Part shown: one piece after another, positions 1 to 7,658 of the stretch
Position numbering within the stretch: the stretch's first letter is position 1
How the letters are laid out: each line of letters starts with the position of its first letter
From: a virus
Taxonomy: Duplodnaviria > Heunggongvirae > Uroviricota > Caudoviricetes
Virus record (IMG/VR): IMGVR_UViG_2703718674_000012
Reading direction: 5' to 3' (one strand)
DNA length: 7,903 nucleotides
Notes under the pieces: model-generated
Databases searched by the model: none
What the model saw: the letters and a program-made list of their open reading frames with translations, nothing else
What the model was told of the DNA's origin: nothing
Translations under genes and position numbers: made by a program

Positions 1-201
1 CTGCTTCATAGCCTGCTTCTCCTTGACCTTTCGGTCCGTAAGAGGCAATCTATATGTGACGAGCATATAGGGGCCTCACTTCGATTTATAGTCGGGTGGG
101 GCTTTTATCTATCTGCCGTTGGTGTTCATGCCCGAGGCAGATAGCCTCAAGCACCCGCAGCAATCCTACTTAACTCTGCCGTTACAGCAAACCGTTTTCG
201 C

Positions 202-225
202 CCGATATGGGAATTCCCATATCGG
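202..225. repeat. Perfect 24-bp palindrome CCGATATGGGAATTCCCATATCGG, downstream of the binding-protein gene
   Basis: Read directly: the sequence is its own reverse complement (12-bp arms, no spacer). No T-run follows on either strand, so it is not a canonical intrinsic terminator. Function unknown (protein-binding site or cruciform). Confidence 0.5.
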
Positions 226-344
226 AATGAATTCAGTTCACCTGGCGAGGCTTAGCGTACAATTTTTTCCGTTTTGTGAGCTGCCCCTACATGCCGCTGG
301 CGCGGCATCCGGAAAAAGAATCCACGTCCTGAAGGACGAGGATG

Positions 345-1103
345 TCAAGTGCCTTTCCTGGTCCAGCCATATTTTTTGAATGCAGGCGCCGCTTCATCGG
401 TTTGTAGCCATTCTGCAAATCGACGGGTTTCATCATTTGCATCCTGACGTACTGTAATGTTCATATCACGCCATATCACGTAGTCTGGCGCTATTTCCAC
501 GACATCACCAATTTCTGGATTACTGGCTGCCCAGTCAGCCCAGGTTATCCAGACATCTGCTCCAGGCTGATTCTCAAGAGCCTTACGTGCAGTTCCGCTA
601 TTGGGCGCATATAAAATAATATTTTTTCGGATTGCGGCGACAGTTTCTATATTCCCTTTACGTCCGGCAATATCTTCCCAGACGCCAGTGCCTGATGTAT
701 TACTGGTACCACCACCATCATTAACAATTACGCCAATCCCAGGTCTGGTCAGGTCGTCAATACTCCGGATATTTTTAGGATTACCTTTCTTTACCAGTAA
801 AATACTTTTTCGCAGATAAAGAGGCTGAATATCTTTTTCACTGAAGCTGTCTTTATGGTCCCGAATGATAGCCAGAGCAGATTGTTCTGATGCGCCAAAC
901 AAGATATCTGCATTTTTTTTGGCATCTTCATTCCATTTGTTCTGTGGGCCGTAATGAACGTTCACTATAATACCTGTTTTTTCGGCATAAAGTTTGGCTG
1001 CATCAAGCAAGGCTGTATGCGGGCCACCAGGACCATACAGATTGATATCAGCATAAGCAGCAGAAGACAGGAATATTAAAAAACCTGCCATTATGTTCCT
1101 CAT
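345..1103 (-). CDS. Periplasmic substrate-binding protein, ModA-like (molybdate/tungstate-type fold); solitary, with no transporter partner genes in the window
   Basis: 252-aa ORF. RBS AAGGAG upstream of ATG at 1103. N-terminal signal peptide MRNIMAGFLIFLSSAAYA followed by D. Length, domain order and C-terminus (...FKKYGWT) resemble ModA as I recall it; not searched. Gene and its upstream region are visibly AT-richer than the phage genes. Confidence 0.6.
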   Translation of the reverse strand: MRNIMAGFLIFLSSAAYADINLYGPGGPHTALLDAAKLYAEKTGIIVNVHYGPQNKWNEDAKKNADILFGASEQSALAIIRDHKDSFSEKDIQPLYLRKSILLVKKGNPKNIRSIDDLTRPGIGVIVNDGGGTSNTSGTGVWEDIAGRKGNIETVAAIRKNIILYAPNSGTARKALENQPGADVWITWADWAASNPEIGDVVEIAPDYVIWRDMNITVRQDANDETRRFAEWLQTDEAAPAFKKYGWTRKGT

Positions 1104-1267
1104 AAAAAACTCCTTTTATTGGTTATCATGAAATAAAGTTATAAACACTACAAATAATATATATTACATCCAGATAAACTTATCCGACTTTACCTCGTGC
1201 ATAGCTTGTTATTTAAAGTCAACAAAATAAGGAAAATTATACGCATATTGAAGAGTATAAACCTTAC

Positions 1268-1295
1268 ATGTTGATTACATTTTTGTAATCAACAT
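1268..1295. repeat. Perfect inverted repeat ATGTTGATTACA-tttt-TGTAATCAACAT in the AT-rich region upstream of the binding-protein gene; candidate operator or hairpin
   Basis: Read directly: 12-bp arms at 1268-1279 and 1284-1295 are exact reverse complements with a 4-nt spacer. It lies about 165 bp upstream of the start codon at 1103 on the promoter side. Confidence 0.5.
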
Positions 1296-1521
1296 CCTGT
1301 TTGGAATAGCCAGCCTTTAATGGATAACTATTTCTGACAATGCAATGAGTATAATCAAGTCCATCTTCCACTGAGAATTAGAGGCGGCATGCTTTTTCCG
1401 GCTCTTGCCGGATATCCGTAATTGTCCATAATCTGCAGATTTATACCTTCTGCATGACCTGTCAGCGAAAATTTGTCCGGTGTTTCTACGGGAATGACAT
1501 CAAAAGTTACACGCACTCGCG

Positions 1522-1833
1522 TTACCGTGTAGACCTACTTTCCTGCACTTGCAAGATCACAGTGGTGTAACCGTAACAGGAATTTATTCTCTGGACCGGC
1601 AGTAAATCCCTGAGTGGCGTGGTTCCCATATCAATTTCCCGCCAGGCAGCCTCCATTGCCAGCGTACAGGCTGGAGCCATGACCTGCCCTTTAAATCTGG
1701 CCCGACCATCCCACCGGACGTGTTCTTCTCCCCTGAACTTAGGTACAGTCATCTCCAGTGGCACAAAAGTGTCAGCGCCATAATTTTTGACCGTTATCGC
1801 GCTACGGATATTTTGTTGACTGGTGAAAATCAC
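1522..1833 (-). CDS. Hypothetical protein, probably a fragment of a decayed nin-region gene (GTG start)
   Basis: 103-aa ORF with GTG start immediately after an in-frame stop and no convincing RBS. A second fragment in another frame (ATG 1939 or 1927 to stop 1802) overlaps its 5' end, consistent with a frameshifted gene. No recognisable family. Confidence 0.3.
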   Translation of the reverse strand: MIFTSQQNIRSAITVKNYGADTFVPLEMTVPKFRGEEHVRWDGRARFKGQVMAPACTLAMEAAWREIDMGTTPLRDLLPVQRINSCYGYTTVILQVQESRSTR

Positions 1834-1962
1834 CCCGCAGAATCAGGCTTATTCCCTTAACCTGGGCTTTCATCCTGACCGCCGCCTCACTACGACCAAT
1901 CAGACTGCCGATGCATTTTACCTTCATTGTTAGTATCATGATTTCAGGCCTGCACCATCCGC

Positions 1963-2697
1963 TCATTGCCCGGACTTCCGACAAATCCCGGCAACCATAT
2001 CCCGGTGCTTGTTCAGCTCCCGCAGCGCGGCGCAGACTCGCTCCCACTTCTGGACATGATTCTTCGCCCTACGCAGTTCGCGATTTGCCATATGCAGCGA
2101 TGGCAAAATCAAATCATCTTCTCGCGTTGCAGTAAACGATGGCAGCGACTGCACAATGTCCGCCACAGTTTCTGTTTTAATATCTTCCTGTGTTGCATCT
2201 TTCTGTACCGGTAACGCAACACCGGCTGGCTGAGGAAAGGCTTTACCATCGGTTTCCGCTACCGATTCAACTTTCGGCTCTGCTGGTAAATTATCACCTG
2301 GTATGCAGTAACGAATTTTACCGTTCTGGTTTACGCGAATCAGACGACCTTTGCTGATTGCCATTGCCAGCGTTGAAGCAACTTTGCGGGATGTTGTACC
2401 GAACAGCGTAGCCAGTTCATCCGCCGTTTGTGGTCCGCGTTGTTCAATCGTCGCGGTTAAATCGCACTCTGAGATTTTCGCTTCTGTTGCCGTGGTGGTT
2501 TCTTCTGGCGCTGGCTGTTCCTGCTGAACGTTGTTATCAGCCACACGCCAGGTGTATACGCTTTTATCAACGAAGCCAGCCTTTTTCAGTTCCCACAGCT
2601 CGTTCAGTACTTCTTCACGACTGATATCAAGTCGCGCAGCCAGCTATACCGACGTGGCTTTTCCCATCGCTTTCAGTGCGTCAAAAACGGTTTCCAT
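1963..2697 (-). pseudogene. Conserved prophage protein with two predicted winged-helix-like segments, interrupted by an in-frame amber codon at codon 18 (TAG at 2644-2646); the longest intact ORF is 1963-2544 from a GTG
   Basis: Strong RBS GGGAGG about 8 nt upstream of ATG at 2697. Translation reads METVFDALKAMGKATSV[32 protein letters not shown]... and continues in the same frame into the 193-aa ORF from the track. The sequence across the stop looks like one continuous N-terminal domain. Confidence 0.5.
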
Positions 2698-2731
2698 TAA
2701 ATTTTCCTCCCGGTAAAAATTACTTCTCAAC

Positions 2732-3397
2732 TCAGACAAAACCGGCCGCTTTCCGGCGTTCATATTCCTGTTTCAGCAACTCAATTGGCGTTGGCCCCGA
2801 CGGGCGTTTGGGGGCCGCCAGTTGTCGCCGGACTGGCGGAACGCTCAGGCCGTTACTAACATGCTTTGCCCATTTCGTCAGTTGCCGTTCTGCAAGCCGT
2901 TTTAATTCCCCTTCGGTCATCTGGCGCTCAATCCCCTTTGAACGCATCTCGAGGCAAATGTGATACAGCACAGGCTGAGACCACGGGTACTTATCACTTC
3001 CGTCGTATCGCCAGGACTCATTGCGCCAGCGGCGGTACTCCTCCATCACAGCATCCACCGTCAGACCGAATGGATTGGCTCCGCTTTTCGAAATCAGTGC
3101 CACAAACTCAGCCAGGTCCGGAGGCCATGTTTCACCCGCCCGGCAGCGGTCCATGCACTGGCGGCAGACCTGCCGGATTTGCTGCTCAGTCATCGCGCCA
3201 ATCTGTGCAATCCAGAGCTTCGAAGGTGCGGCCCCGTTCTTCTGGATCCAGCGGTTCGAATAAACCACCCCCATGAGTTCCCACAGCTTCCAGGCCGTTT
3301 CCGTCGCTGATAAATCCGTTTTCACGTTCCCACTGCTCACGTGCTGCCCGAATTTCCTGAACTGCCCGTGATGCGGTGCCACCTGGTGCTGCTGCAT
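2732..3397 (-). CDS. Replication protein P-like (lambda P family helicase loader)
   Basis: 221-aa ORF. RBS AAAGGGG upstream of ATG at 3397, which directly follows an in-frame TAA. The C-terminal half (DKYPWSQPVLYHICLEMRSKG...ELKRLAERQL) resembles lambda P (ESYPWKSNAHYWLVTNLYQNM...ELRRKAADEL) as I recall it. Third-codon-position GC is high in this frame across 3191-3390 (hand count). Confidence 0.75.
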   Translation of the reverse strand: MQQHQVAPHHGQFRKFGQHVSSGNVKTDLSATETAWKLWELMGVVYSNRWIQKNGAAPSKLWIAQIGAMTEQQIRQVCRQCMDRCRAGETWPPDLAEFVALISKSGANPFGLTVDAVMEEYRRWRNESWRYDGSDKYPWSQPVLYHICLEMRSKGIERQMTEGELKRLAERQLTKWAKHVSNGLSVPPVRRQLAAPKRPSGPTPIELLKQEYERRKAAGFV

Positions 3398-4225
3398 GGT
3401 TTACCCCTTTGCTGACTGGTTTAACCTGCGCCCTGACGTGATTTACGTGACGGGCGAATTTCTGCTCCCACTGAATCTGCGTAAACACTTTCCCCTCCGC
3501 TGCCCAGTAGTCCCGGAAGGCGGCAAGTTCAGCAGGTGTAAATTCTGTCTCCGGCAAAGCCATCCCCCACAACGCAGCCCGTCGTCGAAAATCCCGTGAC
3601 GGATACCAGCTATCGCTCATCGGGAATTTTCCGATGGGTTCGCTCAGGCCATACAGGAATACAGGGGGGCTGCCTGTAACGACAAAACTTCCTGCTCACT
3701 GGTCGGAGCACTCTCGCGTGCGTTATGTGTGGGGTTTAGATCTTTGGGTTCCTTTGGGTTCCGTGATCCGTTTTTGGGTGTCTTTGATGGAAAATTTGGG
3801 TGTCTTTGGTTATTTTCCATGCAGCTAAGAGTTCTGTTTTTGGGTCTGTTTTGTGCTGAAACATAACCATTTTCGGTACTGTTTTTATTAACAGCACCAA
3901 TTGTACCCACCTTTAAAGACTCCCGTTTTTGGGTGTATTCAGGCTCGGCAACACTTTCTTCTACACCGATAAGTCGGTACACCACAATTTGCTTTGTTCT
4001 GCCTTTTCTCTCACCGGTATCAACAATTAACCCAATCTCCATCAGGTGTCGTAAGCTGTCCTGCACAGTCTTTTTGTTCAGTTCCGTTACTTCTGCCAGT
4101 GCAGATACAGACGGGTATGCACACAAATCGGCACCGCACATATCAGCAAGCCAGGTCAATACTGACTTACTGGATGAACTGCCGGTTTTCACCTTTTTAG
4201 CCCATCGTAGTGCATCGATACTCAT
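3186..4225 (-). pseudogene. Replication initiator O-like (N-terminal HTH, iteron-encoded linker, C-terminal DnaT-like domain), split by a frameshift at a C6 tract (plus-strand G6 at 3664-3669)
   Basis: N-terminal part: ATG 4225 with RBS AGGGGG, HTH-like MSIDALRWAKKV...LTWLADMCG...LIGV, frame ends at stop 3644-3646. C-terminal part: a different frame is open from 3695 to 3186 and encodes PIGKFPMSDSWYPSRDFRRRAALWGMAL...AEGKVFTQIQWEQKFAR, which resembles the C-terminal domain of E. coli DnaT as I recall it. Adding one C to the C6 tract joins the two frames as ...SLQAAPPVFLYGLSEPIGKFPMSDSW... Confidence 0.6.
3743..3936. repeat. Iteron cluster plus AT-rich tract; candidate origin of replication inside the O-like gene
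   Basis: TTTGGGT core at 3743, 3753, 3773, 3795, 3839 and 3928. Two perfect 14-mers TTTGGGTGTCTTTG at 3773-3786 and 3795-3808. Tandem TTTGGGTTCC at 3743-3762. AT-rich segment about 3810-3900. This layout matches lambda ori lying within O (established knowledge). Confidence 0.6.
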
Positions 4226-4748
4226 ACGACCCCCTGGCAGACATTTGTTTATCTGCAAAGTAATATTGGTATTGCTGACGATACGCGTGCTTGAAAGCAA
4301 TAGCTTTTTCTATAAGCTCGTCAGTCTCACGTTCCACAACAACTGGATCCGCAAAAAGCAGCCCGGACTCCACCACATCGCCATATTCTTTGTTTAACCC
4401 GGCGATCATGTACGTAATGCTTTTTCCGTCAGTAATTTCACAATACAATCTGAAATCGCTGATCCGGATAGCCTCCATAATTGCCGGAATCAGCGCCGTG
4501 AATTTGTCACGCTTATCTCTGGTGTCGATAGCTTTCCAGCGTTCGAATATCTTCACCCGGTTAACGCCCAGCGCCCGTTGATCAACCTCGCCATCATTAA
4601 ACGTGACGCGTTGAACATCGATGTTCGGGCGTTCTTTCAGAGCCCAGAATGCTTCCGTGATTAATATCGTCGCCTGCTCCTGTGTCATTCCTGGTCGGCA
4701 TACCCAGGTATCCAGAGCCTCACAAACCTGTTCAGTGGTGATTTTCAT
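4197..4748 (-). CDS. YdaT-like protein in the CII position (between the cro-like gene and O); candidate CII functional analogue
   Basis: 183-aa ORF. Its start overlaps the dicC stop by 17 nt and its end overlaps the O-like start by 29 nt. N-terminus MKI... and the motif ERWKAIDTRDKRDKFTALIPAIMEAI resemble Rac YdaT (HRWLKGETKTQREKIQKLIPAILAIL) as I recall it; not searched. Confidence 0.5.
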   Translation of the reverse strand: MKITTEQVCEALDTWVCRPGMTQEQATILITEAFWALKERPNIDVQRVTFNDGEVDQRALGVNRVKIFERWKAIDTRDKRDKFTALIPAIMEAIRISDFRLYCEITDGKSITYMIAGLNKEYGDVVESGLLFADPVVVERETDELIEKAIAFKHAYRQQYQYYFADKQMSARGSYEYRCTTMG

Positions 4749-4959
4749 TGTTCAACCGCCCCGCCCGCTTTGCCTTACGATATTCGTCATAAACTTTGGG
4801 GTCGTACTGAAGTTCCCCGCCGGATGCCTCTTGCAGGCGCATCGCGCGACCTTCAGGAACCAGTTCCCCCCATGCAGCAACGCTTGCCAGCCTAACTCCT
4901 GCGACATTGGCAAGCTTTGTTTTGCTGCCAAAAAACGCTATAGCATCAATTTTCAACAT
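4732..4959 (-). CDS. dicC: DicC, Cro-like repressor of the Qin-type immunity region
   Basis: 75-aa ORF divergent from dicA. RBS AAGGGG upstream of ATG at 4959. Protein MLKIDAIAFFGSKTKLANVAGVRLAS...GRAMRLQEASGGELQYDPKVYDEYRKAKRAGRL closely matches K-12 DicC as I recall it. Confidence 0.85.
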   Translation of the reverse strand: MLKIDAIAFFGSKTKLANVAGVRLASVAAWGELVPEGRAMRLQEASGGELQYDPKVYDEYRKAKRAGRLNNENHH

Positions 4960-5035: not shown

Positions 5036-5443
5036 ATGAAAAACGAAACCTTCGGTGCTCGCCTCTTATACAGGCGAAAAAAATTAAAACTGTCTCAGGC
5101 CGCATTAGGTAAGCTGGTCAAAGTGGCTCACGTAACAATTTCTCAATGGGAAAGAGATGAAACACAGCCAGCGGGGAAGAGATTATTCGCACTGAGCCAG
5201 GCGCTTCAGTGCTCGCCGACTTGGCTTCTTTTTGGAGATGAAGATAAGCAACCAGGCGAACCGATCCCAGATAATCAGCCAGTCAATCTGACAGAAGATC
5301 AAAAAGAGTTGCTTCAACTGTTCGACGCACTGCCTGAGTCAGAGCAAAAGGCTCTGTTGTCAGAGATGCGTGCTCGAGTTGAGAATTTCAACAAACTTTT
5401 TGAAGAACTACTCAAAGCTCGCAAAAGAAGCGCAAATAAATAA
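5036..5443 (+). CDS. dicA: DicA, cI-like HTH repressor of the dicB operon
   Basis: 135-aa ORF. HTH region LKLSQAALGKLVKVAHVTISQWER and C-terminus ...FALSQALQCSPTWLLFGDEDKQP...LPESEQ...EMRARVENFNKLFEELLKAR match K-12 DicA as I recall it, including identical length. No SD; see leaderless hypothesis. Confidence 0.9.
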   Translation: MKNETFGARLLYRRKKLKLSQAALGKLVKVAHVTISQWERDETQPAGKRLFALSQALQCSPTWLLFGDEDKQPGEPIPDNQPVNLTEDQKELLQLFDALPESEQKALLSEMRARVENFNKLFEELLKARKRSANK

Positions 5444-7391: not shown

Positions 7392-7658
7392 GTGTTATGG
7401 GTGGATTCTCTGTATCCGGCGTTAATTGTTAACTGGTTAACGTCACCTGGAGGCACCAGGCACCGCATCACAAAATTCATTGTTGAGGAAATTAATACGT
7501 CTGAAGGTTGTTTTGAAATTGGTGTCACTATCAGTAACCCTGTATTTACTGAAGATGCCATTAACAAGAGAAAACACGAACGGGAGTTATTAAATAAAAT
7601 ATGCATTCTTTCAATGCTGGCCCGTTTACGTCCGATACAAAAAGGATGCTGGCAATGA
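7392..7658 (+). CDS. dicB: DicB cell-division inhibitor; start codon uncertain (conserved core from about 7491, only GTG 7392 or 7401 in frame)
   Basis: Core NTSEGCFEIGVTISNPVFTEDAINKRKHERELLNKICILSMLARLRPIQKGC matches K-12 DicB as I recall it. No in-frame ATG between the upstream stop (7359-7361) and the core. Stop TGA 7656-7658 overlaps the ydfD ATG (ATGA). Confidence 0.75.
   Translation: MLWVDSLYPALIVNWLTSPGGTRHRITKFIVEEINTSEGCFEIGVTISNPVFTEDAINKRKHERELLNKICILSMLARLRPIQKGCWQ

Follow-up and report, generated by a model that had tools for sequence, protein, structure and literature searches.

The PPompW prophages, in which multiple genes are reportedly inactivated and which have been described as 'apparently defective' (PMC8112680), provide the closest described setting for the replication gene examined here. 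Their initiator, annotated as a 'phage replication protein' (BCI48944.1, LC567818.1), is intact and 1041 nt long, as is the copy in LSU61, the closest relative compared, which encodes WP_000020556.1. Loci encoding WP_000020556.1 have the same neighbours as the locus studied here: dicA, dicC/cro, a ydaT-family gene, the initiator, P, a DUF1627 gene and paa. Two better known proteins provide the functional background. The N-terminal domain of the lambda O initiator is able to bind the origin on its own, and the C-terminal domain of E. coli DnaT, as the name of its Pfam family also records, binds single-stranded DNA.

In this work we describe an initiator gene on a 7,903-nt stretch of viral DNA (IMG/VR record IMGVR_UViG_2703718674_000012; the window, by which we mean the stretch at its full length). 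The early region of the window is 99.5% identical to PPompW prophage records, and it is on this early region that its likeness to PPompW rests; we accordingly treat the source as a probable PPompW-type lambdoid prophage that carries paa. Relative to WP_000020556.1, the window's copy lacks one base of a seven-C run (C7), which leaves two frames of 193 and 144 aa. The evidence presented below indicates that this is very probably a genuine one-base deletion, C7 to C6, and an ordinary inactivation of the initiator in a decaying PPompW-type prophage of the 493/89 lineage.

Results

The complete initiator gene, as delimited by PGAP annotation, by the intact LSU61 and PPompW copies and by PHROG 1032, spans positions 3186..4225 on the minus strand, where it is frameshifted. 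An upstream frame (3644..4225, minus strand), assigned from ORF translation and PHROG matches to the putative N-terminal winged-HTH-like part and the linker, begins at the ATG at 4225 (MSIDALRWAKK...) and terminates at the TGA at 3646-3644. Its 193-aa product ends in ...SLQAAPLYSCMA, of which the last six residues (LYSCMA) are out of frame and lie 3' of a coding-strand C6 homopolymer (3664..3669, minus strand; G6 on the plus strand). A second frame, shifted by -1 and encoding the DnaT-like C-terminal domain and tail (3186..3695, minus strand; identified by Pfam PF17948 and PDB DnaT chains), opens at 3695 directly past a TGA at 3698-3696 on the minus strand; its first ATG lies at 3620, from which a 144-aa ORF (MSDSWYPSRDF...) runs to 3186, beginning 21 nt past the stop of the upstream frame. 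Both frames are open over 52 nt, and the C6 tract, the site of the one-base deletion, falls within this overlap. No single ORF in the window thus joins the N-terminal part to the DnaT-like domain, the two frames parting at C6.

Adding one C to the tract yields a continuous protein of 346 aa with the junction ...SLQAAPPVFLYGLSEPIGKFPMSDSWYPSRDF..., in which the C7 state reads GCC CCC CCT (Ala-Pro-Pro). The original prediction had located the split at this homopolymer, with a second frame open from 3695 and its first ATG further downstream, and had proposed that one extra C would fuse the two parts; translation bears out each of these coordinates, and the repaired product has exactly the predicted junction. 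The repaired protein differs from WP_000020556.1 of LSU61 solely by K108T. When the DNA is aligned with this intact relative, the missing C is the sole difference over the 200 nt around the tract, and such a lone change argues against a chance explanation for the split.

Domain searches with the repaired protein identified the DnaT DNA-binding domain (Pfam PF17948) at residues 201-267, with a score of 61 bits against a cutoff of 25 (E = 9e-17). Matches to the DnaT structures 6aep, 9zbt and 4ou6 (E = 4e-18 to 2e-19) start at residue 194 or 197, with residues 194-270 of the repaired protein aligned to DnaT residues 82-157. Because these alignments start six to nine residues before the internal Met203, the similarity precedes the first ATG of the downstream ORF, in agreement with what had been proposed from the reading frames. 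The NCBIfam DnaT equivalog NF002770 scored 93.5 bits against a cutoff of 201 and was matched only over profile positions 82-166 of 179; since the score is below the cutoff and a single domain, the C-terminal one, is matched, the repaired protein is not a DnaT orthologue.

At the N-terminus, Pfam HTH_36 scored 20.9 bits, below its cutoff of 25, while PHROG initiator families match residues 1-176 with E-values down to 7e-28, among them the 'replication initiation O-like' families 391, 678, 8540 and 345 (E = 4e-12 to 1e-7). No match to Phage_rep_O, the Pfam family of lambda O, was obtained in a Pfam scan of the repaired protein at E <= 0.01. The earlier label of 'O-like initiator' therefore holds in part: remote PHROG similarity of the N-terminus and gene order favour it, and the Pfam result does not, so that we regard it as a fair functional description. 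A single uninterrupted match to PHROG 1032 ('replication initiation protein') covers residues 1-298 and thereby crosses the frameshift site (E = 3e-90). Since one added C restores a 346-aa ORF with this match, the window's copy is, on profile similarity, a pseudogene member of the PHROG 1032 or 'DnaT-like ssDNA-binding domain-containing protein' family.

Within the linker-coding DNA, a motif count and an analysis of repeat families revealed an iteron-like array at 3743..3934 on the minus (coding) strand. It consists of six copies of ACCCAAA, against 1.47 expected in the whole window, all on one strand within 192 nt; the ACCCAAA cores are embedded in longer imperfect repeats, and the repeat families D1-D3 overlie the same region. 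We consider the array to be a set of candidate iterons and a probable prophage origin. Their location inside the coding sequence of the initiator itself is as expected for a lambda O-type layout. No specific account of iteron-bearing phage initiators of the DnaT type emerged from a search of the literature.

The genes around the initiator are those of an early rightward operon. A Cro/DicC-like regulator (4732..4959, minus strand; Pfam P22_Cro E = 3e-13; dicC in the PPompW record) is the first gene of the operon, and a DicA/CI-like repressor (5036..5443, plus strand; Pfam HTH_3 E = 4e-14; dicA in the PPompW record) is divergent from it. A YdaT-family gene (4197..4748, minus strand; Pfam YdaT_toxin 24.8 bits against a cutoff of 21, and PGAP) lies upstream of the initiator in the same operon and overlaps its start. 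Directly downstream is a lambda-P-type helicase-loader gene (2732..3193, minus strand; Pfam Phage_lambda_P E = 4e-16; PGAP 'replication protein P'), which the end of the initiator gene overlaps by 8 nt. This position in the early operon, with a helicase-loader gene next in line, is that of a PHROG 1032-type initiator.

Beyond the replication genes, a DUF1627 gene lies at 1963-2544 on the minus strand. Its upstream and start region (2646-2744) shows clustered small indels and substitutions relative to LSU61, and PGAP gives the gene a length of 681 nt in 493/89, shorter than the 735 nt of LSU61; in 97-3250 and 2014C-3050 it is annotated as 'frameshifted'. The paa adhesin gene (345-1103) adjoins a fimbrial-protein pseudogene at 1355-1833 on the minus strand, which PGAP annotates as 'frameshifted; internal stop' and which shows the same kind of degradation in each of the six annotated E. 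coli genome regions examined.

Save for a small difference near dicB, the window aligns at 100% to the chromosome of E. coli O157 strain 493/89 (NZ_CP038412.1). There PGAP annotates the identical initiator stretch as a pseudogene ('frameshifted') whose product is given as 'DnaT-like ssDNA-binding domain-containing protein', and the split is thus already known from public annotation. The difference lies in the window near 7490 (7488-7493), where, in the minus-strand context GACGTATTAA-TT-TCCTCAACAATG, TT replaces the 29 nt CGTTTGGTAATAACGTTTCCATTATCGCG. These 29 nt are present in every matching public record and hold the dicB start codon and first seven codons, so that with TT in their place the window has no dicB start. 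Neither complete E. coli genomes nor GTDB representatives contain the TT junction, and it is likewise missing from those fetched loci that extend over dicB (L001-L006, L011, L014); it is either a private deletion in the source of the window or an artefact.

To compare tract length across related prophages, short queries centred on the tract were searched, and complete E. coli genomes with identical flanks were counted. C7 vastly predominates, with approximately 512 records, while six records carry C6 and one carries C8. The C6 records are 493/89, 97-3250 (two assemblies), 10_253, 2014C-3050 and O111:H8 7-16 37A; the C8 record is JNE132847 (NZ_AP028094.1). The alleles that break the frame (C6 and C8) account for 7 of the approximately 519 records with identical flanks (about 1.3%), and isolates thus differ in tract length in a way that switches the frame. 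A protein collection of approximately 15 billion sequences presents a similar picture: the intact protein with K108 occurs on at least 1000 contigs, the corresponding C6 product on 73, and the C8 product (allele P0005; 205 aa, ending ...AAPPCIPVWPERTHRKIPDER) on 30. A diverged allele, P0004, retains the tract region (...LQAAPPVF...). Judged from these comparisons, C7 is the ancestral and predominant state of the tract. Because both C6 and C8 alleles occur, the C7 run is also a hot spot at which slippage has recurred towards both shorter and longer tracts, with C6 present on two backgrounds and C8 found as well; such behaviour is to be expected of a homopolymer.

The window's allele is distinguished by T108, a substitution private to it. 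Precisely this 193-aa product is encoded on 14 contigs, which come from four draft assemblies at NCBI, an ENA metagenome assembly and several run assemblies in Logan, and one Logan contig with T108 and C6 is common to at least 20 samples. In the DNA of the ten listed loci encoding this product, T108 and C6 occur together in every case, and C6 is the only tract length on record for the T108 lineage; the repaired, intact T108 protein is absent from the approximately 15 billion protein sequences. In the comparison with LSU61, which has C7, the window shows 9 mismatches in 7.5 kb, and in the same comparison 25 mismatches with strain 97-3250, which has C6 and K108. As the window is nearer to the former, its C6 most likely arose within the 493/89 lineage, separately from that of 97-3250.

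In more distant relatives, namely Rac-SA53 YdaU, TL-2011b gp12 and the O protein of Citrobacter phage Chris1, the frame is continuous through the position of the tract (LQAAEPDYLEGLSEPIGKFPM, LQVAEPAFLDGLSEPIGKFPM), and the codons at the equivalent position are unrelated and form no C-run. DNA similarity to these three begins near codon 161, slightly upstream of the tract position, and the identity of their DnaT-like modules to that of the window is 80-92% in the E. coli phages (Rac-SA53 and TL-2011b) and about 61% in Chris1. Aligned with the window's gene, as had originally been suggested, homologues with an intact DnaT-like C-terminus are single in-frame ORFs. Since these relatives stay in frame there without a C-run, the single fused protein is, by this alignment, the conserved state, and the homopolymer itself is not conserved. 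Two naturally separate genes, which according to the original prediction would have spoken against it, were not found: the module lies within a larger initiator gene in the gene tables of all three (Rac-SA53, TL-2011b and Chris1), and the names of the features matched when phages were searched more broadly point in this direction too.

Discussion

A missing base in a homopolymer raises the question of whether it is missing from the genome or only from its sequence. Under the latter explanation the true genome would carry C7 and an intact gene, and there are grounds for suspicion: homopolymer indels are a typical error of long-read sequencing, C6 is confined to a few, scattered complete genomes (6 of about 520 records), and one of these, 7-16 37A, is frameshifted a second time, in the neighbouring cro gene (cro/dicC, at 3259-3485 of the fetched locus from NZ_CP077519.1). 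Because of this neighbouring frameshift, the C6 call in 7-16 37A could stem from a true mutation or from faulty assembly. For the window's allele the situation is different, since at least four further NCBI assemblies, the ENA metagenome and the Logan assemblies carry T108 as well and all of them have C6, while no intact T108 protein exists in the 15-billion collection; in addition, the two assemblies of 97-3250, which were deposited separately, agree on C6. The original prediction had listed sequencing error among its explanations and had noted that a C7 reading would reduce the split to an assembly error; independent assemblies give C6, and we therefore reject the explanation as extremely unlikely. 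The agreement among them fits a mutation that was inherited and became fixed in the 493/89 lineage, as opposed to a one-off error. A genuine length change could alternatively belong to a contingency locus, in which C7 is maintained by selection as a reversible switch of replication, with C7 on, C6 and C8 off, and the states interconverting in populations. In keeping with such a role, all three lengths occur naturally, C6 does so on at least two genetic backgrounds, and the tract persists in the diverged allele P0004. Against it, off alleles are rare (7 of approximately 519), the 493/89 lineage is fixed in the off state with no revertant on record, related initiators have no tract, and seven bases are few for high-rate switching in mismatch-repair-proficient E. 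coli; moreover, neutral slippage in a decaying prophage predicts the same pattern. We consider a contingency locus very unlikely, and would place at a similarly low level its extension to a mutational switch exploited by selection, whereby slippage to C6 or C8 would repeatedly shut off replication and ground a prophage carrying paa and effectors, with the 193-aa fragment then inhibiting or excluding incoming related phages.

A different possibility takes the C6 allele to be functional as it stands, with programmed recoding, through -1 ribosomal frameshifting or transcriptional slippage, providing full-length initiator and setting the ratio of truncated to full-length product. The arrangement of the frames is compatible with this, as the tract lies inside the 52-nt overlap and, judging from the codons, a tRNA-Pro that occupies the P site at CCC could slip back and pair in the -1 frame. 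However, the two-frame layout is not conserved, because the predominant C7 allele is in frame and distant relatives have no C-run. Furthermore, no X XXY YYZ slippery heptamer was found in the zero frame of the overlap region, and the 94 nt downstream, examined for a stimulatory structure, fold no better than shuffled sequences (-27.6 kcal/mol, z = -0.47). A run of six is also shorter than those known to give efficient transcriptional slippage in bacteria. Nor was a Shine-Dalgarno sequence found upstream of the ATG at 3620, which speaks against separate translation of the 144-aa ORF; weak, low-level reinitiation there could occur, since the ORF starts 21 nt after the upstream stop. The slippery-tract frameshifting that had been suggested earlier thus finds no support in these features, and recoding is in our judgement the least probable of the explanations weighed here.

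The reading that we prefer remains ordinary inactivation by a one-base deletion. That the lesion is an inactivating mutation in a cryptic prophage had been among the original suggestions, and it is supported both by the inheritance of the allele within the lineage and by the reported defectiveness of the prophage family. Most likely, slipped-strand replication removed one C from the C7 run. The intact protein would be tripartite, beginning with a winged-HTH-like domain and ending with a DnaT-like domain, the two joined by a linker in whose DNA the iteron array lies. On the model of lambda O and P, the first of these domains may bind the iterons at the prophage origin, and the DnaT-like domain may couple origin binding to the downstream P-type helicase loader or to single-stranded DNA. 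With the deletion, translation would stop six codons past the tract and produce a 193-aa origin-binding fragment devoid of the DnaT-like domain, and the DnaT-like frame would have no ribosome-binding site of its own. The lack of this domain from the fragment, together with the lack of a ribosome-binding site for the remaining frame, suggests that the prophage has most likely lost initiator function and, we infer, replication with it. Since the N-terminal domain of lambda O is sufficient for origin binding, the fragment could by analogy still bind DNA and keep a degree of activity, such as interference.

The lesion is a case of ordinary prophage decay, one more step in an already defective prophage, in which the fimbrial gene nearby has likewise become a pseudogene. 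It adds a documented inactivating mutation to a family that had already been called defective, and goes little beyond the existing annotation. The combination of T108 and C6 serves as a marker of the 493/89 lineage, as distinct from an assembly artefact. The gene also offers a clear case of a mosaic class of initiators, in which a variable N-terminal origin-binding domain is joined to a common DnaT-like module.

This mosaic structure is best appreciated in relation to known systems. The lambda O/P module resembles that of the window in its order of cro, a gene in the cII position, initiator and P, in the iteron-like array inside the initiator and in the lambda-P homologue downstream; the proteins themselves are alike in that the window's N-terminus matches 'replication initiation O-like' PHROGs, and unlike in that the window's initiator has no Pfam lambda O match and ends in a DnaT-like domain in place of that of lambda O. 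With E. coli DnaT the likeness is restricted to one common domain, residues 194-278 of the repaired protein corresponding to DnaT 82-166, its C-terminal domain, while the equivalog model NF002770 remains at 93.5 against 201 bits. The same C-terminal DnaT-like module is found in Rac YdaU ('primosomal protein I' in Rac-SA53) and in the initiators of TL-2011b, epsilon15, phiV10 and SPN1S; Rac-SA53 YdaU is 92% identical to the last 144 aa of the window's protein, and in Rac-SA53 and Chris1, as in the window, a replication or P-type gene comes next after the gene bearing the module. Rac YdaU, TL-2011b and their kin differ from the window in having no C-run and in N-terminal DNA-binding domains that are unrelated to or different from its own. 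It is because these N-terminal domains vary while the C-terminal module is common to all that the initiator family is a mosaic.
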